In this document: in pieces, positions 3,953 to 60,280 of the stretch | Numbering within the stretch: the first letter of the stretch is position 1 | Layout: the number at the start of each line of letters is the position of its first letter | NCBI GenBank assembly: GCA_052327205.1 | Contig: CM126204.1 | Coordinates: 28,458,001-28,522,000 of the forward strand | Reading direction: 5' to 3' | Length of the DNA: 64,000 nucleotides | From: Somniosus microcephalus | Taxonomy: Eukaryota | Notes under the pieces: generated by a model | Databases searched by the model: none | Told to the model about the DNA's origin: nothing | Seen by the model: only the letters and a program-made list of their open reading frames with translations | Program-made: the position numbers and the translations under genes

Positions 3953-4206
3953 CTGTGAATAGGTGAAATAGTGATAAGAGGCAGATGCTGAAGAGGTACT
4001 GATTAGAAATTCTGGCGTGAAATCCAAAAAAGATAAGCAATATGATTTTGTTCAAATACGTGCTGAACACTGGCTAAACACCCCTTCCAAAAATAAAATC
4101 CCACATTCAACAGGCATCATTGTAAATAGACTTGCAATTTGGAACATTCCTTTTGATCAAATTCACTCCTAAATAGCAAGTTCTGAAAATACACAGCATT
4201 ATGTAA

Positions 4207-6556
4207 CGAGAAAGGATTAATTAGCAATCTTGTTGTAAGAGGCCCCTTGGGTCGGAGCGATCATAATATGATCGAATTCTTCATTAAGATGGAGAATGAA
4301 GTAGTTGACTCGGAGACTAGGGTCCTCAATTTAAATAAAGGAAACTATGATGGTCTGAGGAGCGAGTTGGGTAGGATTGATTGGGGAATGGCACTCAAAG
4401 GGTTGACGGTGGATAGGCAATGGCAAACATTCAAAGACCGAATGCATGAACTACAGAATTTGTTCATCCCAGTTTGGCATAAAAATAAAACAAAAAAGGT
4501 GACCCAACCGTGGCTAACAAGGGAAATTAGGGATAGCATAAGGTCCAAGGAGAGGGCATATAAATTGGCCAGAAAAAGCAATAATCCTGAGGATTGGGAG
4601 CAGTTTAGGATTCAACAAAGGAGGACAAAGGGATTAATTAAGAAAGGGAAAATAGAATATGAGAGTAAGCTTGCAGAGAACATAAAAACTGACTGTAAAA
4701 GCTTTTATAGATACGTGAAGAGAAAAAGATTGGTGAAGTCAAGCGTAGGTCCCTTGCAGTCAGAATTGGGGGAATTTATAATGGGGAACAAAGAAATGGC
4801 AGACCAACTAAATACATATTTTGGTTCTGTCTTCACAAAGGAGGACACAAATAACCTCCCAGAGATGCCGGGGAACATAGGGGTCTGATGAAAGGGTGGA
4901 ACTGAAAGAAATCAGTATTTGTAGGGAAATGGTGTTAGGAAAATTGATGGGACTGAAGGCCGATAAATCCCCAGGGCCTGATAATCTACATCCCAGGGTA
5001 CTTAAGGAAGTGGCCCTAGAAATAGTAGATGCATTGCTGGTCATCTTCCAGAACTCGATAGACTCTGGAACGGTACCCATGGATTGGCGGGTAGCTAATG
5101 TTACCCCACTATTCAAAAAAGGTGGTAGAGAAAAGGCGGGGAATTATAGACCGGTAAGTTTGACATCGGTAGTGGGGAAAATGCTAGAGTCCATTATAAA
5201 AGATGTAATAGCAGAGCACTTGGAAAGCAGTGACTGGATCGGACAAAGTCAACATGGATTTACAAAAGGTAAATCATGCTTGACTAATCTACTGGAATTT
5301 TTTGAGGATGTAACTGGTAAAATAGATAAGGGAGAACCAGTGGATGTAGTGTATTTGGACTTTCAGAAGGCTTTCGATAAAGGTCCCGCATAAGAGATTA
5401 GCGTGCAAAATTAAGGCACATGGGATTGGGGGCAAGGTATTGACTTGGATAGAGAACTGGTTGGCGGACAGAAAGCAAAGAGTTGGAATAAACGGGTCGT
5501 TTTCCGAGTGGCAGGCAGTGACTAGTGGGGTACCGCAAGGATCGGTCCTAGGACCCCAGTTGTTCACAATATATATTAATGATCTGGACGAGGGAATTGG
5601 ATGTAATATCTCCAAATTTGCAGACGACACAAAGCTGGGGGGGGGGGGGGGGGGGGGGAGGGTATGCTGTGAGGAGGATGTCGTGAAACTCCAGCACGAT
5701 TTGGACAGGTTGGGTGATTGGGCAGAAACATGGCAAATGCACTATAATGTGGATAAATGTGAGGTTATCCACTTTGGTGGCAAAAACAGGAAGGCAGATT
5801 ATTTGAATGGTAATAGATTGGGAGAAGGGGAAGTGCAAAGAGACCTGGGTGTTCTTGTACACCAGTCACTGAAGGTAAGCATGCAGGTGCAGCAGGCGGT
5901 TAAGAAGGCAAATGGTATGTTGGCCTTCGTAGCAAGAGGGTTCGAGTACAAGAACAAGGATGTCTTGCTGCAGTTGTACAGGGCCTTGGTGAGACCACAC
6001 CTTGAGTATTGTGTGCAGTTTTGGTCGCCTTACCTGAGGAAGGACGTTCTTGCCATGGAAGGAGTGCAGCGAAGATTCACCAGGCTGATACCTGGGATGG
6101 CAGGAATGACGTATGAGGAGAGATTGTGTCGATTGGGCTTATACTCACTGGAGTTTAGAAGATTGAGAGGGGATCTCATCGAAACCTATAAAATTCTGTC
6201 AGGCCTGGACAGACTAGATACAGGAAGGATGTTTCTGATGGCTGGGGCGTCCAGAACCAGGGGTCATAGTCTAAGGATAAGGGGTAAGCCATTTAGGACT
6301 GAAATGAGGAGGAATTTCTTCACCCAGAGAGTGGTGAACCTGTGGAATTCTCTGCCACAGAGGGCGGTGGAGGCCAGTTCATTAAGTATATTCAAGAAAG
6401 AGTTGGATATATTTCTTAAGGCTAAAGGGATGAAGGGATACGGGGAGAAGGCAGGGACTGGGTACTGAATTTGGATGATCAGCCATGATCTCATTGAATG
6501 GCGGAGCAGGCTCGAAGGGCCGAATGGCCTACTCCTGCTCCTATCTTCTATGTATC
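4207..6556 (+). mobile_element. 5'-truncated young CR1 LINE (end of APE, RT, 3' UTR), with a stop and a frameshift
   Basis: ORFs 4247-4888, 4896-5393 and 5440-6468 contain [25 protein letters not shown] and FADDT. CR1 tail present; flanked by TATGTAA repeats (4200-4206, 6557-6563). Confidence 0.95.
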
Positions 6557-28686: not shown

Positions 28687-31175
28687 AAAGAAATAGGTGC
28701 AGGAGTAGGCCATTTGGCACCTCGAGCCTGCTCCGCCATTCAGTAAGATCATGGCTGAACTTCTACCTCAACGCCACTTCCCTGCACGATTCCCATATCC
28801 CTCGATTCCTTTAATATCCAAAAATCTAGCGATCTCTGTCTTGAATATACTCAATGACTGAGCCTCCACAGACCTCTGGGGTAGAGAATTCCAAAGATTC
28901 ACCACCCTCAGTGAAGAAATTTCTCCTCATCTCAGTCCTAAATGGCCGGCCCCTTATTCTGAGACTGTGACCCCTGGTTCTAGACTCCCCAGCCAGGGGA
29001 AACATCCTCCCTGCATCTACCCTGTCAAGCCCTGTAAGAATTTTGTATGTTTCACTGAGATCATCTCTCATTCTTCTAAACTAGGCCTAGTCTAATCAAT
29101 CTCTCCTCATAGGACAAAACCCCCATCCCAGGAATCAGTCTGGTGAACCTTCATTACACTCCCTCTATGGCAAGTATATCCTTTGCTTAGGTAAGGAGAC
29201 CAAAACTGTACACAATACTCCAGGTGTGGTCTCACCAGGGCCCTGTATAATTGCAGCAAGACATCTTTACTCTTATACTCAAATCATAGAAACATAGAAG
29301 ATAGGAGCAGGAGTAGGCCATTCGGCCCTTCGAGCCTGCTCCACCATTCAATGAGATCATGGCTGATCGTTCAAATTCAGTACCCTGTCGCTGCCTTCTC
29401 CCCATATCCCTGGATCCCTTTAGCCTCAAGAAATATATCCAACTCTTTCTTGAATATATTTAATGAACTGGCCTCCACCGCCCTCTGTGGCAGAGAGTTC
29501 CACAGGTTCACCACTCTCTGGGTGAAGAAATTCCTCCTCATTTCAGTCCTAAATGTCCTACCCTTATCCTTAGACTATGACCCCTGGTTCTGGACTCCCC
29601 GACCATCGGGAACATCCTTCCAGCATCTAGTCTGTCCAGGCCTGACAGAATTTTATAAGTTTCGATGAGATCCCCTCTCAATCTTCTAAACTCCAGTGAG
29701 TATAAGCCCAATCGACACAATCTCTCCTCATACGTCATTCCTGCCATCCCAGGTATCAGCCTGGTGAATCTTCACTGCACTCCTTCCATGGCAAGAACGT
29801 CCTTCCTCAGATAAGGCAACCAAAACTGCACACAATACTCAAGGTGCGGTCTCACCAAGGCCCTGTACAACTGTAGCAAGACATCCCTGTTCCTGTACTC
29901 GAACCCTCTTGCTACGAAGGCCAACATACCATTTGCCTTCTTAACCGCCTGCTGCACCGGCATGCTTACCTTCAGCGACTGGTGTACAAGAACACCCAGG
30001 TCTCTTTGCACTTCCCCTTCTCCCAATCTATTGCCATTCAAATAATAATGTGCCTTCCTGTTTTTGCCACCAAAGTGGATAACCTCACATTTATCCACAT
30101 TATAGTGCATTTGCCATGTTTCTGCCCAATCACCTAACCTGTCCAAATCGTCCTGGAGTTTCATGACATCCTCCTCGCAGCATACCCTCCCACCCAGCTT
30201 TGTGTCGTCTGCAAATTTGGAGATATTACATCCAATTCCCTCGTCCAGATCATTAATATATATTGTGAACAGCTGGGGTCCTAGGACCGATCCTTGCGGT
30301 ACCCCACTAATCACTGCCTACCACTCGGAAAACGACCCGTTTATTCCAACATTACATTTATTACAAATCCTCTTGTAAGAAAGGCCAACATACCATTTGC
30401 TTTCTTAATTGCTTGCTGAACCTGCATGTTAACTTTCAGTGATTCGTGTACGAGGACACCCAGGTCCCTCTGAACACCAACATTTCCCATTTAAAAAACT
30501 CTGCTTTTCTGTTTTTCCTACCAAAGTGGATAACTTCACATTTCTCCACATAACATTCCATTTGCCATGTTCTTGCCCACTCACTTAGCCTGTCTATATC
30601 CCGTTGAAGGCTCTTTGCATCCTCCTGACAACTTACATGCCCACCCAGCTTTGTATCATCACCAAACTTGGATATATTACATTTGGTCCCCTCATCCAAA
30701 TCATTGATATAGATTGTGAAGAGCTTAGGCCCAAGCACTGATCCTTGCGGTACCCCACTAGTTACAGCCTGCCAACCCGAAAATGACTTGTTTATTCCTA
30801 CTCTCTGTTTTCTGTCCGTTAACCAATCCTCAATCCATGTTAGTATATTACCCCCAATCCCATGAGCCCTAATTTTGTTTAATAACCTCTTGTGTGGCAC
30901 CTTATCGAATGTGACACCACATTCACTGGTTCCCCCTTACCTATTCTGCTGGTTACAACCTCAAAAAATTCTAACAGATTTGTCAAACACGATTTCCCTT
31001 TCATAAATCCATGTTGACTCTGCCCAATCCTATTATTATTTTCTAAGTGCCCTGTTACCACGTCCTTAATAATAGATTCTATCATTTTCCCTACTACTGA
31101 CGTTAGGCTAACTGGTCTGTAGTTCCCTGTTTTCTCTCCCTCCTTTCTTAAATAGTGGGGTTACATTTGCTACTG
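28687..31175 (-). mobile_element. 5'-truncated CR1 inserted in the Deu-SINE and containing a nested younger CR1
   Basis: RT ORFs 30879-31085, 30436-30900 and 28826-29071; GGACA is duplicated at both ends. Confidence 0.9.
29286..30363 (-). mobile_element. Young 5'-truncated CR1 nested in the older CR1
   Basis: ORFs 29772-30314 and 29538-29747; TSD CAAATC (29280-29285, 30364-30369). Confidence 0.92.
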
Positions 31176-34070: not shown

Positions 34071-34687
34071 TCCGTTAGCATTGCTGAAAGGAGAGGGGAG
34101 GGGAAGATGCGTTTGGTGGTGGGATCACACTAGAGGTGGCGGAAAATGATCTGTTGAATGTGGAGGCGGGTGGGGTGAAAGGGGAGGACAAGGGGAACCC
34201 TGTCGTGGTGCTGGAAGGGAGTGGAAGGGGAAGGGGTGGGGCGAGAGCAGAAGTGCAGGAAATAGAACATACACGGTTGAGGGCCATGTCAACCATGGTA
34301 GAGAGGAATCCTTGCTTGAGTAAAAGGTGGACATATCGGAAGCACTAGTATGGAAGGTGGCATCGTCAGAGCAGATGCGACGGAGAAACTGGGGGAATGG
34401 AATAGAGTCCTTACAGGAAGCGAGGTGGGAGAAAATGTCATCCAGGTAGCTGTGGGAGTCAGTGGACATATAGTGAATGTTTTTCAATAGTCTATCCCCA
34501 GAAATGGAGACAGAGAAGTCGAGGAAGGGAAGGGAAGAGTCTGAGATGGACCATGTGAAGGTCAGGGAAGGGTGGAAATTGGAAGCAAAGTGAATGAAAT
34601 TTTCCAGTTCAGGGCGTGAACGGGAAACGGCATCCGGCATCGATACAGTCATCAATGTACCGAAAAAAGAGGTGAGGGAGGGGACCC

Positions 34688-35164
34688 AGGCTGATACCTG
34701 GGATGGCAGGAATGACGTATGAGGAGAGATTGGGTCGATTGGGCTTGTACTCGCTGGAGTTTAGAAGAATGAGAGGGGATCTCATTGAAACTTATAAAAT
34801 TCTGGCAGGACTAGACAGACTAGATGCAGGGAGGATGTTCCCGGTGGTCAGGGAATCCAGAACCAGGGGTCACAGTCTAAGGATAAGGGGTAGGCGTTTT
34901 AGGACAGAAATGAGGAGGAATTTCTTCACCCAGAGAGTGGTGAACCTGTGGAATTCTCTACCACAGAAGGCAGTAGAGGCCAATTCATTAAATATATTCA
35001 AGAAGGAGTTGGATATATTTCTTAAGGCTAAAGGGATCAAGGGGTATGGGGAGAAAGCAGGTACTGGGTACTGAACTTGGATGATCAGCCATGATCGCAT
35101 TGAATGGCGGAGCAGGCTCGAGGGGCCGAATGGCCTACTCCTGCTCCTATCTTCTATGTTTCTA
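34688..35164 (+). mobile_element. Short young CR1 3' insertion
   Basis: ORF 34703-35074 ends GYGEKAGTGY; GACC is repeated at both junctions. Confidence 0.92.
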
Positions 35165-35195
35165 TGACCGGAGTAGGACTGGAACAAAGAATGTT

Positions 35196-36790
35196 CTTTA
35201 TTGAATTTTTTGTGGAGGTAACAAGGAGGGTCGATGAGGGTAGTGCATTTGATGTTGTCTATATGGATTTTAGCAAGGCTTTTGGGTCCCCCATGACAGA
35301 CTGGTCACGAAAGTAAAAGCCCATGGGATCCAAGGCAAAGTGGCAAGTTGGATCCCCAATTGGCTCAGAGGCAGGAAACAAAGGGTAATGGTCGAAGGGT
35401 GTTTTTGTGACTGGAAGGCCGTTTCCAGTGAGGTTCCGCAGGGTTCAGTACTGGGTCCTTTGCTTTTTGTGGTATATATCAATGATTTGGACTTGAATGT
35501 AGGGAGTATGATTAAGAAGTTTGCAGATGATACAAAAATTGGCCATGTGGTTGATGAAGAGGAAAGCTGTAGACTGCAGGAAGATGTCAATGGACTGGTC
35601 AGGTGGGCAGAACAGTGGCAAATGGAATTCAATCAGGAGAAGTGTGAGGTAATGCATTTGTGGAGGGCTAACAAGGCAAGAGAATACACAATAAATGGTA
35701 GGACACTGAGTAGTGTAGAGGAACAAAGGGACCTTGGAGTGCATGTCCACAGATCCCTGAAGGTAGCAGGCCAAGTAGATAAGGTGGTTAAGAAGGCATA
35801 CGGGATACTTGCCTTTATTAGCCGAGGCATAGAATATAAGAGCAGGGAGGATATGCTTGAACTGTATAAAACACTAGTTAGGCAGCAGCTAGAATACTGC
35901 GTACAGTTCTGGTCACCACATTACAGAAAGGATGCGATTGCACGAGAGAGGGTGAAGAGGAGATTTACGAGGGTGGTGCCTGGGCTGGGGAATTTTAGCG
36001 ATGAGGAAAGACTGGATAGGCTGGGGTTGTTTTCTTTGGAACAGAGGAGGCTGAGGGGAGACCTAATTGAGGTATATAAAATGAGGGGCCTAGATAGAGT
36101 GTATAGGAAGAACCCATTTCCCTTAGCAGAGGGGTCAACAAACATGGGGCACAGATTTAAAGTAATTGGTAGGCAGTTTAGAGGGGAATCTGAGGAGAAT
36201 TTTTTTCACCCAGAGGGCGGCGGGGCTCTGGAACTCACTGCCTGAAAGGGTGGTAGAGGCAGAAACCCTCATCACATTTAAAAACTACAGGAAACTCTCT
36301 TTTTACCGGCACCTAAATAACCAGAAATCTCTCTTAACCGGAAAAATTCAGGAGTAGGTTCAGGTAAGTTTTACTTCATATTAGTGGCCGTGTAACTGGG
36401 GTTCCTGGATCTGTGGCCGTGTAACCGGGGTTCCTGCACCTGTTGCCATGCAACAGGGACGCCTGGATCTGTGGCCGTGTAACCGGGGTTCCTGCACCTG
36501 TTGCCATGCAACAGGGACGCCTGGATCTATGGCCGTGTACAGGGCTCTCGTACCTTAGTAAGTATACCTCTCTGTAATCCGGACTTTTTGATCAACCGGC
36601 ACCACGCCGGTCCCATCGGTGCTGGATAAAAAATTTTTTTCCTGTATTTGGATATGCACTTGAAGTGCCGTAACCTACAAGGATATGGACCAAATGCTGG
36701 AATGTGAAATTAGGCTGGATAGCTCTGTCAGCCGGCACGGACAAGATGGGCTGAATGGCCTCCTTCTGTGTTGTAAATTTCTATGATTCT
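35196..36790 (+). mobile_element. CR1 (different subfamily), 5'-truncated and split by a MITE
   Basis: RT ORF 35340-36245 ([15 protein letters not shown]) and CR1 tail ending tttctatgattct. Confidence 0.92.
36288..36644. mobile_element. Tigger-like MITE with an internal 29/58-bp tandem repeat
   Basis: TA|CAGGAAACT...TTTCCTG|TA; 58-bp units at 36413-36470 and 36471-36528. Confidence 0.85.
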
Positions 36791-43801: not shown

Positions 43802-44428
43802 TACCTCCAACATTTTATGTAGGGATGGTATCGCATTGCAATGAATTTAAGTCCCAGCTTGCTGAGTTAGAGGATGGTGGGACGCAGGTTCACGTCTGCA
43901 TACCCTCACATGACAAGTTATCAATTTCAGCCGTGACATTGGGAAGAGATGGCGCATTGAGGCCAGATACTTTCCCAAAGGCAGTGAGGGAGAAGCTTTC
44001 CCCATAGCGACGGGAGGAAGGGAAGAAGGGGTAAGGTAAATTTGCATTTACAAAAGCCTCATCACATTCTCAAAAACATCCCACAGTGCGTTAAATGCAA
44101 TTAACTACTTGGAAATAGCCGATATGTAAATTAACACAGCAGCCATTTGTGCACAGCGAGGTCCCACAAAGAGCAATCAGCTGAATGACCACTTGATCTA
44201 TTTTTTGTGGTGTTCGTTAAGAAAAGGACACCAGGAGAACCCTCTGCAAAATGGTTTAATGACTAGCATTTTACATTTAGATTAGATTCTTGCAAATCAA
44301 AGAAATGTGGGAACAACTCTGCCCCAACTAAAACCAACTCTTGTAATTTACCTCATATGAAGACTAGTTGTGATGAATTTTGTGTTTTTTTTTTAAAAAG
44401 CAGATAATTGCCATTCACATGTTCCTCT

Positions 44429-44807
44429 ACAAGAGGCCCCAGAGGCTCAGGTAGGCCCCAGTGCGGCATCGGCAGCGGGTGGAGGCGGAGCTGAGCGGCA
44501 GAGCGACAAGAGGCCCCAGAGGCTCAGGTAGGCCCCAGTGCGGCATCGGCAGCGGGTGGAGGCGGAGCTGAGCGGCAGAGCGACTACAAGAGGCCCCAGA
44601 GGCTCAGGTAGGCCCCAGTGCAGCATCGGCAGCGGGTGGAGGCGGAGCTGAGCGGCAGAGCGACTACAAGAGGCCCCAGAGGCTCAGGTAGGCCCCAGTG
44701 CGGCATCGGCAGCGGGTGGAGGCGGAGCTGAGCGGCAGAGCGACTACAAGAGGCCCCAGAGGCTCAGGTAGGCCCCAGTGCGGCATCGGCAGCGGGTGGA
44801 GGCGGAG
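44429..44807 (+). repeat. Tandem array of about 4.8 x 80-bp GC-rich monomers at the CR1 5' end
   Basis: Units begin acaagaggccccagaggctcaggtagg at 44429, 44506, 44586, 44666 and 44746 and are nearly identical. Confidence 0.95.
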
Positions 44808-45382
44808 TCGGGACCAGCGGGAGCAGCGAGGAGGAGCTCGGGAGAAAACCCGGCGACCAGCGAGGCCCGAGACCAGTCGGGAGCAGTGAGTCGGAGCCCG
44901 GTATAAAAACCAGAGAGAGGCGAGGCCCGAGACCACAGCTGGGGCAGTCGGGAGAGCAGGAGGCCAGTAACTGCTGGGGCAGTCGGGAGAGCAGGAGGCC
45001 AGTAACTGGTGAGTTTAAAAGCTCACCTTTCGCGGGCTTTTTCTTTCACAGCTGGTGCAGTCGGGAGAGCAGGAGGCCAGTAACTCTTATATAGGTGGAG
45101 CTGTTGCTAAACCCGAAACACTACAGTGTAGTGTCTCCCACCCTTCCACCTCCTCTAACCTTTTAGGGGTTAGGGGAAGTTGAAAAGGTAGGTTCAATTT
45201 ATTTTATTTCAGGAGCCTAACCTAGGTGGAAAAGGTTCCAGGACAGGAGGCGGCAGTGAAAATACAACACCAGAAAACAGGTAGGTGACTGGTTGGTGAG
45301 TACTTTCACAAACTTATTCTAAGTAGAATTCAATAATTAAGCTAAATCGTAGTAAATAAAAGGGTATTGTAAGGGTTAAGTC

Positions 45383-46321
45383 ATGGAAGGGCAGCTCGGA
45401 CCCGTGTCATGCTTCTCCTGTGCCATGTGGGAAATCAGGGACACTGTCCCTGACAACTATGTGTGCAGGAAGTGTGTCCAGCTGCAGCTCCTAGCGGACC
45501 GCATGGCGGCGCTGGAGCTGCGAATGGACTCACTCTGGAGCATACGCGATGCTGAGGATGTTGTGGATAGCACATTCAGTGAGTTGGTCACACCGCAGGT
45601 AAAGGCTAGCTCAGACAGTAAATGGGTGACCAAAAGGCAGGGTAAAGGCAGGAAGGTAGTGCAGGAGTCACCTGCGGTCATCTCCCTCCAAAATAGGTTT
45701 ACCGTTTTGGGTACTGTTGGGGGAGATGACTTATCAGGGGAAGGCACCAGCAGCCAGGTTCAGGGCACCATGACTGGCTCTGCTGCACAGAAGGGCGGGA
45801 AAAAGAGGGATAGGGCTATAGTGATAGGGGATTCAATTGTAAGGGGGATAGATAGGAGTTTCTGTGGCCGAGACCGAGACTCCAAGATGGTATGTTGCCT
45901 CCCTGGTGCAAGGGTCAAGGATGTCTCGGAGCGGGTGCAGAGCATTCTGAAGGGGGAGGGGGATCAGCCAGTTGTCGTGGTACATGTAGGTACCAACGAT
46001 GTAGGTAAAAAGAGGGAGGAGGTCCTACAAGCTGAATTTAGGGAGTTAGGAGCTAAATTGAAAAGTAGGACCTCAAAGGTAGTAATCTCTGGATTGCTAC
46101 CAGTGCCACGAGCTAATAAGTTTAGAGAGAGTAAGATAGATAAGCTAAATACGTGGCTTGAGCAGTGGTGCAAGGGAGAGGGATTTAAATTCTTGAGGCA
46201 TTGGAACCAGTTCTTGGGGAGGAGTGACCTGTACCAAGGGGACGGTCTACACCTGAACTGTGAGGGAGCCGATGTCCTCGGGGTAATATTTTCTAGGGCG
46301 GTTCGGGAGGATTTAAACTAA
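45383..46321 (+). CDS. CR1 ORF1p: C4 zinc finger, coiled coil and SGNH esterase domain
   Basis: CFSC..CRKC and a leucine-rich helix, then IVIGDSIVRG (block I), HVGTND (block III) and DGLH (block V); uninterrupted 312 aa. Confidence 0.92.
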   Translation: MEGQLGPVSCFSCAMWEIRDTVPDNYVCRKCVQLQLLADRMAALELRMDSLWSIRDAEDVVDSTFSELVTPQVKASSDSKWVTKRQGKGRKVVQESPAVISLQNRFTVLGTVGGDDLSGEGTSSQVQGTMTGSAAQKGGKKRDRAIVIGDSIVRGIDRSFCGRDRDSKMVCCLPGARVKDVSERVQSILKGEGDQPVVVVHVGTNDVGKKREEVLQAEFRELGAKLKSRTSKVVISGLLPVPRANKFRESKIDKLNTWLEQWCKGEGFKFLRHWNQFLGRSDLYQGDGLHLNCEGADVLGVIFSRAVREDLN

Positions 46322-46368
46322 TTTGGCAGGGGGATGGGAACCTAGGTAGTGGAAAAGAGGGAAGTCAT

Positions 46369-49271
46369 ATGAAGTTAGAAATAGATGGTAGAAAGGTGAG
46401 AAGCAATAAGCAAAGGAGAGAAACACAAAGGGCCAAACTAATTCATAATGAGAGTGTGAAAAAAGCAAGCCTGAAGGCTTTGTATCTTAATGCTAGAAGC
46501 ATTAGGAACAAGGTGGATGAATTAGTTGTGGAAATAGAGGTAAACAAGTATGATTTGATTGGGATTACAGAAACGTGGCTGCAGGGTGGGCAAGGCTGGG
46601 AACTTAACATCCAGGGATATACAATATTTAGGAAGGATCGGCAAAAAGGTAGGGGAGGTGGGGTAGCATTGCTGGTAAAGGAGGGGATTAATGCAATGGA
46701 AAGGAAGGATATTAACTCGGATGAAACGGAATCTGTATGGGTAGAAATGAGAAATAGCAAGGGGAGGAAAACGTTAGTGGGTGTGATATATAGGCCTCCA
46801 AATAGTAATATGGAGGTGAGGGAAGGCATAAAAAGGGAAATTAGAGAAGCGTGCGATAAGAGCACAGCTGTCATCATGGGTGACTTTAATTTACATATTG
46901 ATTGGACTACCCAAATTAGTAAAAATTCTGAGGAGGAGGAATTCCTGGAATGTTTTCGGGACGGTTATCTGGACCAATATGTCGAGGAGCCGACTCGAGA
47001 TCAGGCCGTTTTAGACTGGGTATTGTGCAATGAGAAGGGACTTATCAGCAATCTTCTTGTACGAGGCCCCTTGGGTCAGAGCGATCATAATATGATCGAG
47101 CTCTCAGTCGAGATGGAGAGTGAGGAAATTGAATCAGAGACTAAGGTCCAGAACTTAAATAAAGGGAATTACGAGGGTATGAGACGGGAATTGGGTAAGA
47201 TTGATTGGGTGGTGTTTCTGGGGGGATTGACAGTGGATAGACAATGGCAAGCATTCAAAGATAGAATGGAAGAATTCCAGAACATGTTTATACCGGTTTG
47301 GCATAAAAATAAACCTAAAAAGGTGACTCAACCGTGGATAACGAGGGAAATTAGGGACAGCATAAAATCAAAAAAAAGGGCATATCAACTGGCAAAAAAA
47401 AGCACCAGACCGGAAGATTGGGGGCAGTACAGGATACAGCAAAAGAGGACAAAGGGATTAATCAGGAAGGGGAAAATAGAATACGAAAGTAAACTTGCAG
47501 CAAACATAAAGACAGACTGCAAAAGCTTTTATCGGTATATCAGGAGGAAAAGACTGGTAAAATCCCAAGTCGGTCCCTTGCAGTCCGATTCGGGAGAATA
47601 TATAATGGAGAATAAGGAAATGGCAGACCAATTAAACTCATACTTTGGTTCTGTATTCACAAAGGAGGACACAAATAACCTCCCAGGAATATCGACAAAC
47701 ATAGGGACTAATGAGAGGGAGGAGCTGACAGAAATTAGTATCTCTAGGGATATGGTGTTGGGTAAGTTGAGGGGACTGAAGGCCGACAAATCCCCGGGGC
47801 CTGATAAACTACATCCTAGGGTACTTAAGGAGGTGGCCCTGGAGATAGCAGATGCTCTAAGGATCATCTTCCGGAACTCCATTGACTCGGGAACAGTACC
47901 CGTGGATTGGAGGGTAGCTAATGTTACCCCAATATTTAAAAAGGGGGGTAGAGAGAAAGCAGGGAATTATAGACCAGTAAGCCTTACATCGGTTGTGGGC
48001 AAAATGCTAGAGTCCATTATTAAGGATAAAATAGCGGAGCACTTGACAAATGGGGAAAGGATCGGACAGAGTCAACATGGATTTACAAAGGGTAAATCGT
48101 GTTTGACTAATCTGCTGGAATTTTTTGAGGAAGTAACTGGTAAAATAGATGGGGGAGAGCCAGTGGATGTGGTGTACCTTGACTTCCAGAAAGCCTTCGA
48201 TAAGGTTCCACACAAAAGATTATCATGCAAAATTAAGGCTCATGGGATTGGGGGCAAAGTATTAACGTGGATAGAGAACTGGCTGGCGGATAGAAAACAG
48301 AGAGTTCGAATAAACGGCTCGTTTTCGGAGTGGCAGGCAGTGACCAGCGGGGTGCCGCAAGGATCTGTCCTGGGACCCCAGCTGTTCACAATATATATAT
48401 AAATGATCTGGATCAGGGAATTGGATGCAATATTTCCAAATTCGCTGACGACACTAAACTAGGAGGAGGGGTGGGCTCTGATGAGGATGTCAGGAGGCTA
48501 CAGTGCGATTTGGACAGGTTGGGGGAATGGGCGGATACGTGGCAGATGCACTATAATGTGGATAAATGCGAGGTTATCCACTTTGGGGGTAAAAACAGGA
48601 GGGTGGATTATTATCTAAATGGCAATAGATTGGGAGATGGGGAAGTGCAGAGGGACCTGGGTGTTCTTGTGCACCAGTCACTGAAGGAGAGCATGCAGGT
48701 GCAACAGGCGATTAAGAAGGCAAATGGTATGTTGGCCTTCATATCAAGGGGGTTCGAGTATAGGAATAGGGATACCTTACTACAGCTGTACAAGGTGCTG
48801 GTGAGACCGCATCTGGAGTATTGTGTACAGTTTTGGTCGCCCCATCTGCGGAAGGATGTTCTTGCCATGGAAAGAGTGCAGCGGCGATTCACCAGGCTGA
48901 TACCTGGAATGACCTACGAGGAGAGATTGAATAGTTTGGGCTTGTACTCACTGGAGTTTAGAAGATTGAGAGGGGATCTCATCGAAACATATAAAATTAT
49001 GGCAGGCCTGGACAGGCTGAATTCAGAGAGAATGTTTCCAATGGCAGGGGAGCACAGAACCAGGGGCCACAGTCTAAAAATAGCGGGCAAATCATTTAAA
49101 ACAGAGATGAGGAAGAATTTCTTCACTCAAAGAGTGGTGAGCCTGTGGAATTCCCTGCCACAGAGGGCTGTGAAGGCTAATTCAATAAATATTTTCAAGA
49201 GAGAATTGGATATATTTCTGAAGGCTAAGGGGATTAAGGGTTACGGAGAAAAGGCGGGGACGGGGTACTGA
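46369..49271 (+). CDS. CR1 ORF2p (AP endonuclease plus reverse transcriptase), one frameshift near 48395
   Basis: APE motifs YLNARS, GITETW, YRPP, MGDFN, SDH; RT motifs [24 protein letters not shown]. Split into ORFs 46369-48402 and 48330-49271 at an (AT)n run. Confidence 0.93.
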
Positions 49272-50876
49272 ACTGGTAAGATCAGCTATGATCTCAGACG
49301 AAGATCAGCCATGATCTCATTGAATGGCGGAGCAGGCTCGAAGGGCCGAATGGCCTACTCCTGTTCCTATCTCTATGTTTGTTCTTTGCTAACTGCCATG
49401 CTACTGTACTTAAGATTGACTGAAATCTGGATTATGATCGTCTCTGATGAGGATTGAAATTGGGATTGGAAAATGCTATGCACAGGATTGAGACTGACTT
49501 GTATAATGAATTAATCCATCACTGCCATGAAAGCATTACAATAGCCATACAAGTTGGTGTTCTGTAAAAAAAAAGTAACAGCTTGTAATGAAAAATAACT
49601 GGGGAAGACACACCAAGGGGATTCATAACCTATTGATAGTTGTAAAATCACCTGGGATAAATTAGTGTTACAACATGCTTTGTTTAAAATGTTTATGCCT
49701 GCATGAATGCAAGGTTCCAATTTGCTTTCTGATTGGTTGCTAATCACATGGCTAACAGGGACCAATCCAACCAGAGAATTACATTCTGCACGCGCTGTAA
49801 AGCACTTTAGGGTGTGAAAGGGGTGCTATGAATGCAAGTTTGTTCTTTACAACACACGGAAGGCAGCCATTATAGATTCACACCACCAAATATTGAAGTT
49901 GAAACAAGTAACAATTTAAAAAGTTGTAACTGCAAACATGTAAAAATTCATGTCAACTGCTCAATTCCATTTTTAAAAATTACCCATAATTAACATCATG
50001 AGATTAACTAGTCTGCAAAGTAAAAAAAGTTTACAAATAAAACTATGGGTTAATTTTTTCTCGTACATGGAATGTTAGCAGCGATGGCAAGGAGAAACAG
50101 TAGTTGCCGCCAATGATTATGCACGGTCATCGTGCTGCTCCTCGTGGAATGCACCACAGGAATCTTCAGAAATAAATAATTACAACATTAAAAAAGAGTT
50201 AATCTATTCCCGTCTAGTCACATGGATAAAGCTGGTACTCAACTTCTTGGCAAGACTGCCCACTCAACTCAGCAAGTCTTACTTTACAAATGGCTTTGCT
50301 CACAAGCCCACTCTGCGAGAGGCGGCCAACCATTCATGTGTATTTAATCAAAACTAATTCTCCCCATTACTGAAACATAAACTTACATTAACCTGACTTG
50401 TGCATGATTTATTAGTTGGATTGCTGAAGGGAGTATTCTAAATGACCTTTGAAAGATTTATGCAAAAATAAACCAGTTATTCAATTTGATTAAAAAGAGA
50501 GTGGCCTTCGAATCAGGGTAGGCCATCTTCATGTCCATCCATTTACATAGCCAACCACTGGAAAATAACACAGAGGCAGGCAGCTTTGACCCCCAGAAGC
50601 CCCTACCACTTTTCTCTCCACTGTAGAGCCTATCAGCAACATTTCTCCATCCAGTGCCCATGTCGAAGGCTGTGTGGTTTACTGTGACTGTCTTAAGAAA
50701 ATTTCCATAGTCACTTTCCAATTCTTCTTTAAACTTCTCTATTTGAGGGCAGGGACTGTGACCTTATTAGAAAGCCAGATGGGCTGTTTATATCCTGAAC
50801 TGAAACATTTAATGGTTTCAAAAATATATACAGGTTAGCTAGCCTTTTCTAGGGTCATCTGCATGGACAAAACCAT

Positions 50877-58114: not shown

Positions 58115-60280
58115 CCATATGTAGGTATGAGAGGCAAGTTGGCTAAGATAGGTTGGGAAATTAGATGAACAGATATGACAGTAGAAAAGCAATGGCAAAC
58201 ATTAAAAAAAAAATCATAATTCGCAACTAATATACATTCCCTTAAGGAATAAAAACACCATGGGAAACATGGTCCACCCGTGGCTAACAAGAGAAATTAA
58301 AGATAGTATTAGATTAAAGGAAGAGGCCTATAATGCTGCCAAAAAGATTAGTAAGCCTGAGGATTGGGAGGATTTTAGAATTAAGCAGAGGACCAAGAAA
58401 TTGATAAAGAAACGGAAAATAGAAAGAGAGTAAACTAGCGAGAGACATAAAAACAGACCGTAAAAGCTTCTATAGGTATGTAAAAAGGAAAAGATTAGCA
58501 AAAGTAAACATGGGTCCCTTACAGGCTGAGACAGGAGAAATTTTTATGGGGAATAAGGAAATGGCAGAGAAATTAAACAAATTCTGTGTCTGTCTTCACA
58601 GAAGATGACGCAAAAAACATTCCGGAAATAGTGGAGAACCAAGGGTCTAGTGAGAATGAAGAACAAAAAGAAATTAGTATTAATAAGGAAATAGTGCTAG
58701 AGAAATTAATGGGACTGAAAGCCGATAAATCCCCTGGACCTGATGGCCTACACCCTAGGGTTTTGAAAGAGGTGGCTATAGAGATAGTGGGTGCATTGGT
58801 TGTCATTTTCCAAAATTCCATAGATTCTGGAACGGATCCTGCGGATTGGAAGATAGCAAATGTAACCCCACTACTTAAGAAATCAGGGGGAGATAAAATG
58901 GTGACAGTTACCCTGACATCAGTAGTAGGGAAAATGCTAGAATCTATTATTAAGGACGTGCTAACTTAGAAAGTAATAATAGGATTGGACAGAGTCAGCA
59001 TGGATTTATGAAAGGGAAATCGTACTTGACAAATCTGTTAAAAAAAAATTGAGGTTGTAACTAGCAGGATAGATAAGGGGGAACCAGTGGATGTAGTGTA
59101 TTTGGATTTTCAGAAGGCATTCGATAAGGTGCTACACAAGAGGTTATGGGCTCATGGGATTGGGGGTAATATACTAGCATGGATTGAGGATCGGTTAACG
59201 GACAGAAAACAGAGAGTAGGAATAAACGGTCATTTGCGGGTTGGCAGGCTGTAACTAGTGGGGTACCTCAAGGATCAGTGCTTGGGCCTCAGTTATTCAC
59301 AATCTATATCAATGATTTGGATGAGGGGAACAAATGTAATATACCCAAGTTTGCTGATGATACAAAGTTGGGTGGGAATGTTAGTTGTGAGGAGGATGCA
59401 GAGGCTTCAAGGGGATATAGGCAGGTTAAGCGAGTGGGCAAGAACACGGCAAATGGAATGTTATGTGGAGAAATGTGAAGTTAATCCACTTTGTTAGGAA
59501 AAACAGAAAAGCAGAGTATTTTTTAAACGGAGAGAGATTCGGAAATGTTGGTGTTCAGAGGGACCTGGGTGTCCTTGTACATGAATCACTGAAAGTTAAC
59601 ATGCAGGTACAGCAAGCAATTAGGAAAGCAAATGGTATGTTGACCTTTATTACAAAAGGATTTGAGTACAAGAGTAAAGACATCTTACTGCAATTATATA
59701 GGGCCCTGGTGAGACCACACCTGGAATATTGTGTACAGTTTTGGTCTCCTTACCTAAGGAAGGATATACTTGCCTTAGAGGGAGTGCAACGAAGGTTCAC
59801 CAGATTGGTTCCTGGGATGGGGGGATTGACCTATAAGGACAGACTGAGTAGACTAGGCCGATATTCTCTCGAGTTTAGAAGAATGAGAGGTGATCTCATT
59901 GAAACATACAAAATTCTTACAGGGCTTGACAGGATAGATGCAGGGAAGATGTTTCCCCTGGCTGTGGAGTCTAGAACCAGGGGTCACAGTCTTAGAATAA
60001 GGGGTCGGCTATTTAAGACTGAGATGAGGAGAAATTTTGTTCACTTAGAGGGTGGGGCACCTTTGGAATTCTCTACCCCAGAGGGCTGTGGAAGCTCAGT
60101 CATTGAGTAAATTCAAGGCCGAGATCGATAGATTTTTGGATATTAAGGTAATCAAGGGATATAGGGATAGTGCAGGAAAGTGGAGTTGAGGTAGAAGATC
60201 AGCCAATATCTTATTGAAAGGCGGAGCAGACTCGAAGGGCCGAATGGCCTACTCCTGCTCCAATTTCTGATGTTCTTATG
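58115..60280 (+). mobile_element. 5'-truncated CR1 with multiple frameshifts
   Basis: ORFs 58586-58969, 59278-59478 and 59463-60110 plus a CR1 tail. Confidence 0.93.

Follow-up and report, generated by a model that had tools for sequence, protein, structure and literature searches.

A conserved slippery heptamer at the ORF1/ORF2 junction of vertebrate esterase CR1 retrotransposons and its probable use in -1 frameshifting

The stretch analyzed here, referred to as the window, is 64,000 nucleotides (nt) of the Somniosus microcephalus genome (assembly GCA_052327205.1, contig CM126204.1, positions 28,458,001 to 28,522,000 of the forward strand). At about 44427-49380 it contains a near full-length CR1 long interspersed nuclear element (LINE) in which a first open reading frame (ORF1) encodes an esterase and a second (ORF2) encodes an APE endonuclease and a reverse transcriptase (RT). 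ORF1 ends in the slippery heptamer T_TTA_AAC, and comparison of relatives indicates that this heptamer at the ORF1/ORF2 junction of vertebrate esterase CR1s is real, ancient, and conserved at the nucleotide level. Judging from sequence, we consider it probable (roughly 0.8) that esterase-bearing vertebrate CR1s express their polymerase by -1 programmed frameshifting, which would produce an esterase-APE-RT fusion. The parts of the element, numbered from the first base of the window, are as follows.

44427..45382, + strand: 5' untranslated region (UTR) of the CR1 copy, from repeat and sequence analysis
45383..46321, + strand: ORF1, 312 amino acids (aa), with a Cys-pair motif, a coiled region and an SGNH/GDSL esterase (PF13472, E = 5e-13), ending Leu-Asn-stop
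46294..46296, + strand: final upstream stop of the -1 frame, which limits the ORF1/ORF2 overlap
46312..46318, + strand: slippery heptamer T_TTA_AAC, taking in the final two ORF1 codons; proposed -1 shift site
46319..46321, + strand: ORF1 stop TAA adjoining the heptamer; relatives have TAA, TAG or TGA at this place, and the -1 frame reads Leu in every case
46319..46482, + strand: linker between ORF1 and the endonuclease, 73% purine, with -1 as its sole open frame
46324..46352, + strand: G-rich tract at a conserved position, including G5 and G3 runs (46329-46338); the -1 frame reads it as Gly-x-Gly
46369..46371, + strand: earliest in-frame ORF2 ATG, in weak context (C at -3, A at +4)
46483..48402, + strand: ORF2 part one, the APE endonuclease (the Asn of YLNARS aligns to L1 N14) and the start of the RT
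about 48391..48402, + strand: (AT)n run with the frameshift mutation that breaks ORF2 of this copy
48403..49271, + strand: ORF2 part two, the remaining RT and the C-terminal region, in a different frame
49272..49380, + strand: 3' UTR, with no poly(A) tail seen

Conservation of the heptamer and its reading frames

ORF1, which starts at the ATG at 45383, closes with the codons GAT TTA AAC TAA at 46310-46321, placing T_TTA_AAC in phase for a -1 shift. In the -1 frame the last upstream stop is the TAG at 46294; from 46297 onward the frame is open, and no stop interrupts it between the heptamer and the endonuclease motif YLNARS, a distance over which the 0 frame has 9 stops and the +1 frame 8. Counted from the heptamer's first base, the ATG at 46369 is 57 nt away, and it lies 47 nt behind the ORF1 stop. 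The G-tract opens with a GG 5 nt past the heptamer, and its G5 run follows at 10 nt. An earlier note on this DNA had described the ORF1 end, the heptamer and its phase, and the -1 frame open to this ATG, and every coordinate was confirmed. In-phase X_XXY_YYZ heptamers occur once in the 313 codon positions of ORF1 and twice in the 677 of ORF2, and the chance of one for a single copy is about 0.3% per position. Only 2 of the 48 possible spellings of a base followed by Leu-Asn are strict heptamers, and TTA accounts for 3 of the 27 Leu codons in this ORF1.

Consensus DNA was taken from Supplementary Table 2 of PMC13343379, which holds about 1,000 rows, and the first 400 bases of each were covered; the junctions of full-length rows fall beyond these bases, and junction rows were classed and translated by eye. 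T_TTA_AAC is present in 20/20 CR1-group rows in which the whole heptamer is readable at the junction, although 19 of these came from searching for the heptamer itself. The stop codon behind it varies among TAA, TAG, and TGA. The rows carry 12 species prefixes, which we take to be elephant shark, catshark, dogfish, sawfish, stingray, bowfin, halosaur, coelacanth, bullfrog, bearded dragon, alligator, and crocodile. The word TTTAAACTA was found at 23 places, 17 of them ORF1/ORF2 junctions by context, and TTTAAACTG at 7 places that included 2 junctions, of which one has a TGA stop. Starting instead from the endonuclease, an independent search located 5 places. Of these, one belonged to a row already known, one to a further row with the complete heptamer (HypSab_CR1-13), and one to a row that begins within the heptamer; no junction was visible at the other 2. 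Another anchor search reused words from rows already found and was not counted as independent.

Alternate spellings were absent from junctions. Five other Leu codons followed by AAC and TAG or TAA were found at 26 places, AAT instead of AAC at 16, and another first base of the heptamer at 10, giving 0 junctions among 52 variant-spelling places (Leu synonyms with TGA or AAT lay outside these searches). In the rows covered, the heptamer is conserved beyond what the amino acids need. The earlier note had proposed comparing the heptamer, the -1 offset, and the ORF2 ATG across CR1 families, and in vertebrate CR1 families the first two proved conserved while the third did not.

Beyond this table, the parts searched of the supplements of PMC4316615, PMC2817409, and PMC11303007 contained no junction (3' ends only for PMC2817409, with one file each of PMC4316615 and PMC2817409 outside the search). 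Matches to TTTAAACTA in PMC2817409 were rejected as junctions, being an in-frame GFKL near the end of ORF2. A scan of GTDB for relatives returned 2 distant SGNH loci from 30 candidates and 0 vertebrate CR1, and plasmid and phage collections gave no match.

The protein ends tell a similar story. A search with ORF1 found 582 proteins, and tails were counted in the best 120 of these. The DxLH motif is present in 103 of the 120, and 88 of the 103 have a Leu-Asn (LN) C-terminus. Among tails ending 26 residues past the motif, 83 of 87 have the LN end and the other 4 are one-residue differences. Greedy dereplication on tail positions 6-24, keeping the first member, left 30 tails of 26 residues, in which L (30/30) and N (30/30) match the catalytic D and H in constancy, whereas positions 19-24 reach only 23-47%. 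Of the 15 among 103 proteins that lack LN, 4 are these variants and another four are outgroup esterases; the rest are one read-through, one fusion, and models that are truncated or spliced. In tails of 22, 27, 28, or 31 residues LN stays beside the stop. LN ends are present throughout all subclades of the vertebrate group in an esterase tree of 53 rows hand-picked for spread, and named sources of LN-ending ORF1 relatives include sharks, rays, turtles, lizards, and a frog. Two high-copy esterases on a long branch, P0121 and P0126, have their LN end five residues later than the vertebrate set; judging by these, the signal may extend beyond jawed vertebrates.

Some gene models read the -1 frame across the junction, giving FKL in Hypanus (P0001 and P0034) and in the wood stork Mycteria (P0007), and VKL in Ranitomeya. 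The two Hypanus models have esterase and endonuclease fused in frame and are each sister to an ORF1 ending GGLN; they are probably one-base-indel copies or corrected models. Since Leu-Asn-stop is read in one frame and FKL in the other, only T_TTA_AAY is possible at these junctions (for the stork, the peptide was decoded together with an ORF1 end from a turtle). FKL is 1 of 24 compatible tripeptides, and decoding controls in shifted and +1 registers give 0 solutions. For Ranitomeya, two peptides fit over 27 codons in a single register and yield G_TTA_AAY. According to the excerpts used here of the frameshifting review PMC5009743, U_UUA_AAC counts among the most shift-prone heptamers and the G_UU(A) variant is used by equine arteritis virus. 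When 1.84 billion representatives were searched with a profile, most of the proteins returned were ORF2 proteins, and none was a new full fusion spanning the heptamer. The LxWQGxG peptide that the earlier note expected behind the shift site turned out to be a feature of sharks and rays, with only (F/V)KL and a Gly-rich stretch common vertebrate-wide.

Among the protein matches, vertebrate models named hydroxyacid oxidase 2, VSIG10-like 2, steryl-sulfatase, and mesothelin (P0001, P0002, P0005, P0006) hold pieces of CR1 ORF1, which is mis-annotation or exonisation. CR1-type ORF1 or ORF2 proteins deposited as Pseudomonas, a Brocadiaceae metagenome-assembled genome, and Carnobacterium (P0021, P0127, P0135) most likely owe their bacterial labels to host contamination.

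The position of the ORF2 ATG is not conserved among relatives. We compared 261 proteins with the endonuclease, and 59 reached at least 40% over 120 residues. Within these 59, 14 models begin behind the Asn aligned to L1 N14, 5 of them with MGNKQEE (2 of the 5 named crane), 37 begin 3-103 residues before it, and 8 are long chimeric models. In L1 the N14A mutation abolishes endonuclease activity (PMC1965478). No in-frame ATG was seen from the heptamer to the catalytic Asn in HypSab_CR1-13 or PogVit_CR1-2. These start data are supporting evidence only.

Observations against frameshifting and rival explanations

A number of observations weigh against a frameshift at this junction, beginning with the lack of a canonical 3' stimulator. 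Structure was sought in this copy, where the 102 nt examined have a minimum free energy of -6.1 kcal/mol (z = +0.66) and the best stem starting 3-13 nt behind the heptamer has 7 base pairs (bp), 2 of them G-C. No stable hairpin or pseudoknot was found 5-8 nt downstream, no Rfam family scored meaningfully on the junction, and long-range pairing of the G-tract was looked for and not supported. Partly because this test for 3' structure failed, the junction is not yet a proven member of the canonical -1 frameshift class. A z of -2.0 over 250 nt was rejected as a sign of a stimulator, since its source is a hairpin over the YLNARSIR codons, too distant at about 170 nt downstream. This hairpin, predicted with 10 bp at 46485-46510, is probably a by-product of the amino acids.

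The earlier note had also suggested stimulation by a G-quadruplex (G4), and this part of its interpretation was not supported. A three-tier G4 cannot form behind the heptamer, and a two-tier fold of -5.8 kcal/mol is no better than shuffles (z = +0.27). G4Hunter scores the G-tract at 1.36, in the top 2.7% of windows, yet the coding strand is G-skewed and this is one among 19 peaks. In known G4-stimulated -1 frameshifting, unlike here, a stable G4 of three tiers stands about 6-8 nt past the slip site; synthetic G4s give at most 7% shifting with an optimum at 6-8 nt spacing, and less with fewer quartets (PMC3919603). In 16/20 consensus rows, nonetheless, at least 4 G in a row follow the stop within about 15 nt, and the tract is therefore under some constraint, either as RNA or as Gly-x-Gly.

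The comparative data also contain points on this side, in addition to the dependence of the row search on the heptamer. The linker as printed has a stop or an indel in AllMis_CR1-1b, AllMis_CR1-6a, and PogVit_CR1-2 (rows of PMC13343379 drop bases), and the -1 frame is readable in frame to the endonuclease in 2 consensus rows, both of which have the stop overlapped by an AUG, as described below. The ORF2 starts are gene-caller starts on single, often decayed copies, some of them probably invertebrate. Residues whose codons cannot end in T are only weakly depleted before LN, at 1/30 versus 1-12/30 at neighbouring positions. L1 ORF2 is moreover translated without need of its own AUG (PMC1965478, PMC5009743), and a variable AUG alone is therefore no proof of a fusion.

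The best of the alternatives, which we nevertheless regard as unlikely, is that ribosomes terminate after Leu-Asn and restart on ORF2 at or near the stop, through a UAAUG overlap as in SART1 or independently of an AUG as in L1. This would yield a separate ORF2 protein (ORF2p), with the conserved bases serving termination or ribosome retention. Such a mechanism has been shown for SART1 and is favoured for L1, and the excerpts consulted report no conserved slippery heptamer for these two elements, whose products are free ORF2p (PMC2881922, PMC3708506, PMC5009743). L1 and SART1 resemble CR1 in having a bicistronic LINE mRNA, with ORF2 dependent on ORF1 translation, and the UAAUG overlap is present in 3/20 CR1 rows (ScyCan_CR1-1a, SquAca_CR1-17a, SquAca_CR1-6c). 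Near-cognate codons stand at the overlap position here (ATT) and in CalMil_CR1-1b and ScyCan_CR1-14 (GTG), and this copy has its in-frame ATG 47 nt behind the stop. SART1 uses downstream structure for ORF2 initiation, and the CR1 copy has its predicted hairpin at 46485-46510. However, the overlap AUG is missing in 17/20 rows, where the codon behind the stop is free (GGT, AGC, GAT, GAA, AGT, GTA, GTT, and others), and with ATT the SART1-type overlap is missing from this copy as well. Reinitiation also leaves unexplained why the Leu and Asn codons are fixed to a single slippery spelling, why the sole variant is a known shift-site variant, and why the stop codon is free.

It is very improbable that the conserved word is a nucleic acid signal unrelated to decoding, such as a splice acceptor for an ORF2 mRNA, an internal promoter, or a protein-binding or cleavage site. 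In many families the word ends in an acceptor-like ..CTAG, donor-like words are present in the 5' UTR, and gene predictors splice into the -1 frame nearby. A signal of this kind would need neither the phase of a slip site nor the exact position of the ORF1 stop, and neither this copy nor the rows with a TAA or TGA stop have the AG; the splice-acceptor reading was rejected because the AG is not conserved.

Selection on the protein is also to be considered, in that Leu-Asn could be kept for helix packing or as a C-terminal signal, with the heptamer as a by-product and ORF2 started from family-specific AUGs. In the AlphaFold model (mean predicted local distance difference test score, pLDDT, 93.9) the terminal Leu closes the last helix (149-167), and from its spacing it would lie on the hydrophobic face. 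Structure may therefore account for some of the conservation seen in the protein. As a full account this is the least credible of the three, since it cannot fix TTA and AAC over their synonyms, as the empty variant searches show, LN tracks the stop rather than the helix register, and the four outgroup esterases lack LN.

A proposed route to an esterase-polymerase fusion

We infer slippage, the fusion, and its ratio to ORF1 protein (ORF1p) from the heptamer, its phase, the open -1 frame, their conservation, and the lack of a conserved AUG, which the DNA and protein comparisons show. In the -1 frameshifting that we favor, most ribosomes would terminate behind Leu-Asn, giving free ORF1p (312 aa here). 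A smaller fraction would move back by one base, either while UUA occupies the P site and AAC the A site or while AAC is in the P site and the ribosome waits at the adjacent stop. The slipped ribosomes would decode the former stop as Leu and then cross the variable linker to make a single ORF1p-APE-RT protein of about 1,300 aa, a LINE counterpart of Gag-Pol, and the shift frequency would set the ratio of fusion to ORF1p. Candidates for the pause signal are the adjacent stop and the conserved G-tract, the latter possibly as a weak G4 or a protein-binding site. In some shark families frameshifting and reinitiation could operate side by side.

A more sweeping form of this proposal holds that, since the jawed-vertebrate ancestor, all esterase CR1s have made their endonuclease-RT only as a fusion to ORF1p, by a U_UUA_AAC shift driven by the abutting stop and the short G-tract (as a weak G-quadruplex or through a host protein binding G-runs) with no pseudoknot. 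We put this forward tentatively and would sooner doubt it than accept it. If true, annotated CR1 ORF2 start codons would be artefacts, and the junction would be a natural structure-poor frameshift stimulator, of a sort that for G4s was anticipated but unknown in the consulted part of a 2016 review.

The element, known systems and significance

ORF1 of the element has the N-terminal Cys motif and SGNH esterase of vertebrate esterase CR1 LINEs. The closest named ORF1 among the matches listed is that of the sawshark Pristiophorus japonicus (74% identity), and in the esterase tree the element is nested among shark and ray proteins (support 99/99), a placement that makes a cartilaginous-fish host most likely. 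The copy is otherwise well kept, but ORF2 is interrupted by a single frameshift in the (AT)n run, and this copy is therefore unable to make a whole polymerase. At its 3' end neither a poly(A) nor a clear repeat tail was seen. No other CR1 copy in the window has an ORF1 or a junction, leaving 44427-49380 as the sole junction-bearing copy; 5'-truncated CR1 copies (65-83% identical to the element) and other RT fragments lie at 4198-6553, 28689-31173, 34686-36245, and 58275-60274.

The 5' UTR contains an 80-bp tandem unit at 44427-44807 (4.8 copies, 97% identical) and, up to 45008, shorter 60- and 35-bp repeats. It has splice-donor-like words at 45008 and 45295, with similar words in the 5' UTRs of shark CR1 consensuses, as well as acceptor-like, pyrimidine-rich ends near 45052 and 45212; the leader of the CR1 mRNA may be spliced. 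By eye, the ORF1 start region at 45365-45460 is very similar to row SquAca_CR1-11 of the PMC13343379 supplement and has the same strong ATG context.

Vertebrate esterase CR1s have been described as CR1 subgroup 7 with a type IVB ORF1 (PMC4120745) and as canonical CR1 (PMC13343379), with the same zinc-finger-like N-terminus and esterase in ORF1 and APE-RT in ORF2. In the excerpts available of both papers ORF1 and ORF2 are treated as two proteins, unlike the fusion proposed here. The ORF1p esterase of ZfL2-1, an L2-clade element (PDB 4C1B), has the same fold as CR1 ORF1 (E = 6e-48 in a profile search), but the match stops short of the LN positions.

The closest parallels in arrangement are the retroviral gag-pol and nidoviral 1a/1b junctions, which share the heptamer class and phase and likewise have a structural gene upstream of a polymerase in the -1 frame (PMC5009743). 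The CR1 junction differs from these in lacking a predicted hairpin or pseudoknot 5-8 nt downstream, in having the 0-frame stop abut the heptamer, and in belonging to a LINE. The Dictyostelium elements TRE5-A and TRE3-A need a -1 frameshift for ORF2 translation according to a review figure legend (PMC5911963), from which alone the likeness is drawn; they are L1-clade non-LTR elements, of another clade and host than CR1. For Paramecium elements +1 shifting, reinitiation, or read-through has been proposed (PMC5405496), and HeT-A shifts within gag (PMC5009743).

We found no publication linking CR1 to ribosomal frameshifting in the full-text literature, a search that did not extend to CR1 papers of 1997-2003, Repbase, subscription journals, bioRxiv supplements, or Zenodo data. 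The word frameshift is absent from the available main texts of PMC13343379, PMC4120745, PMC3905857, PMC3708506, PMC2881922, and PMC11303007, and the consulted part of the frameshifting review PMC5009743 does not mention CR1. Frameshift passages in PMC11835228 were rejected as a CR1 precedent, as those seen concern avian leukosis virus. The novelty would lie in a gag-pol-type -1 frameshift signal in a LINE clade for which we found no description; an earlier remark on the overlap in CR1 or Repbase reports of 1997-2003 would lower this novelty but not the case itself.

Most vertebrates have CR1 as their dominant retrotransposon group (PMC13343379), and in chicken it makes up 11.8% of the chromosomes (PMC11835228). 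Translation of the second ORF of LINEs has been called unclear (PMC3708506), and the CR1 literature found, in the portions available, does not address how CR1 ORF2 is translated. If -1 frameshifting does operate at this junction, it would mean that the CR1 polymerase has to be redefined as fused to a membrane-binding esterase, account for ORF2 models that start behind the catalytic Asn, and alter the way in which intact CR1 copies are counted. It would also provide a widespread case, in vertebrate genomes, of -1 frameshifting with a non-standard stimulator.

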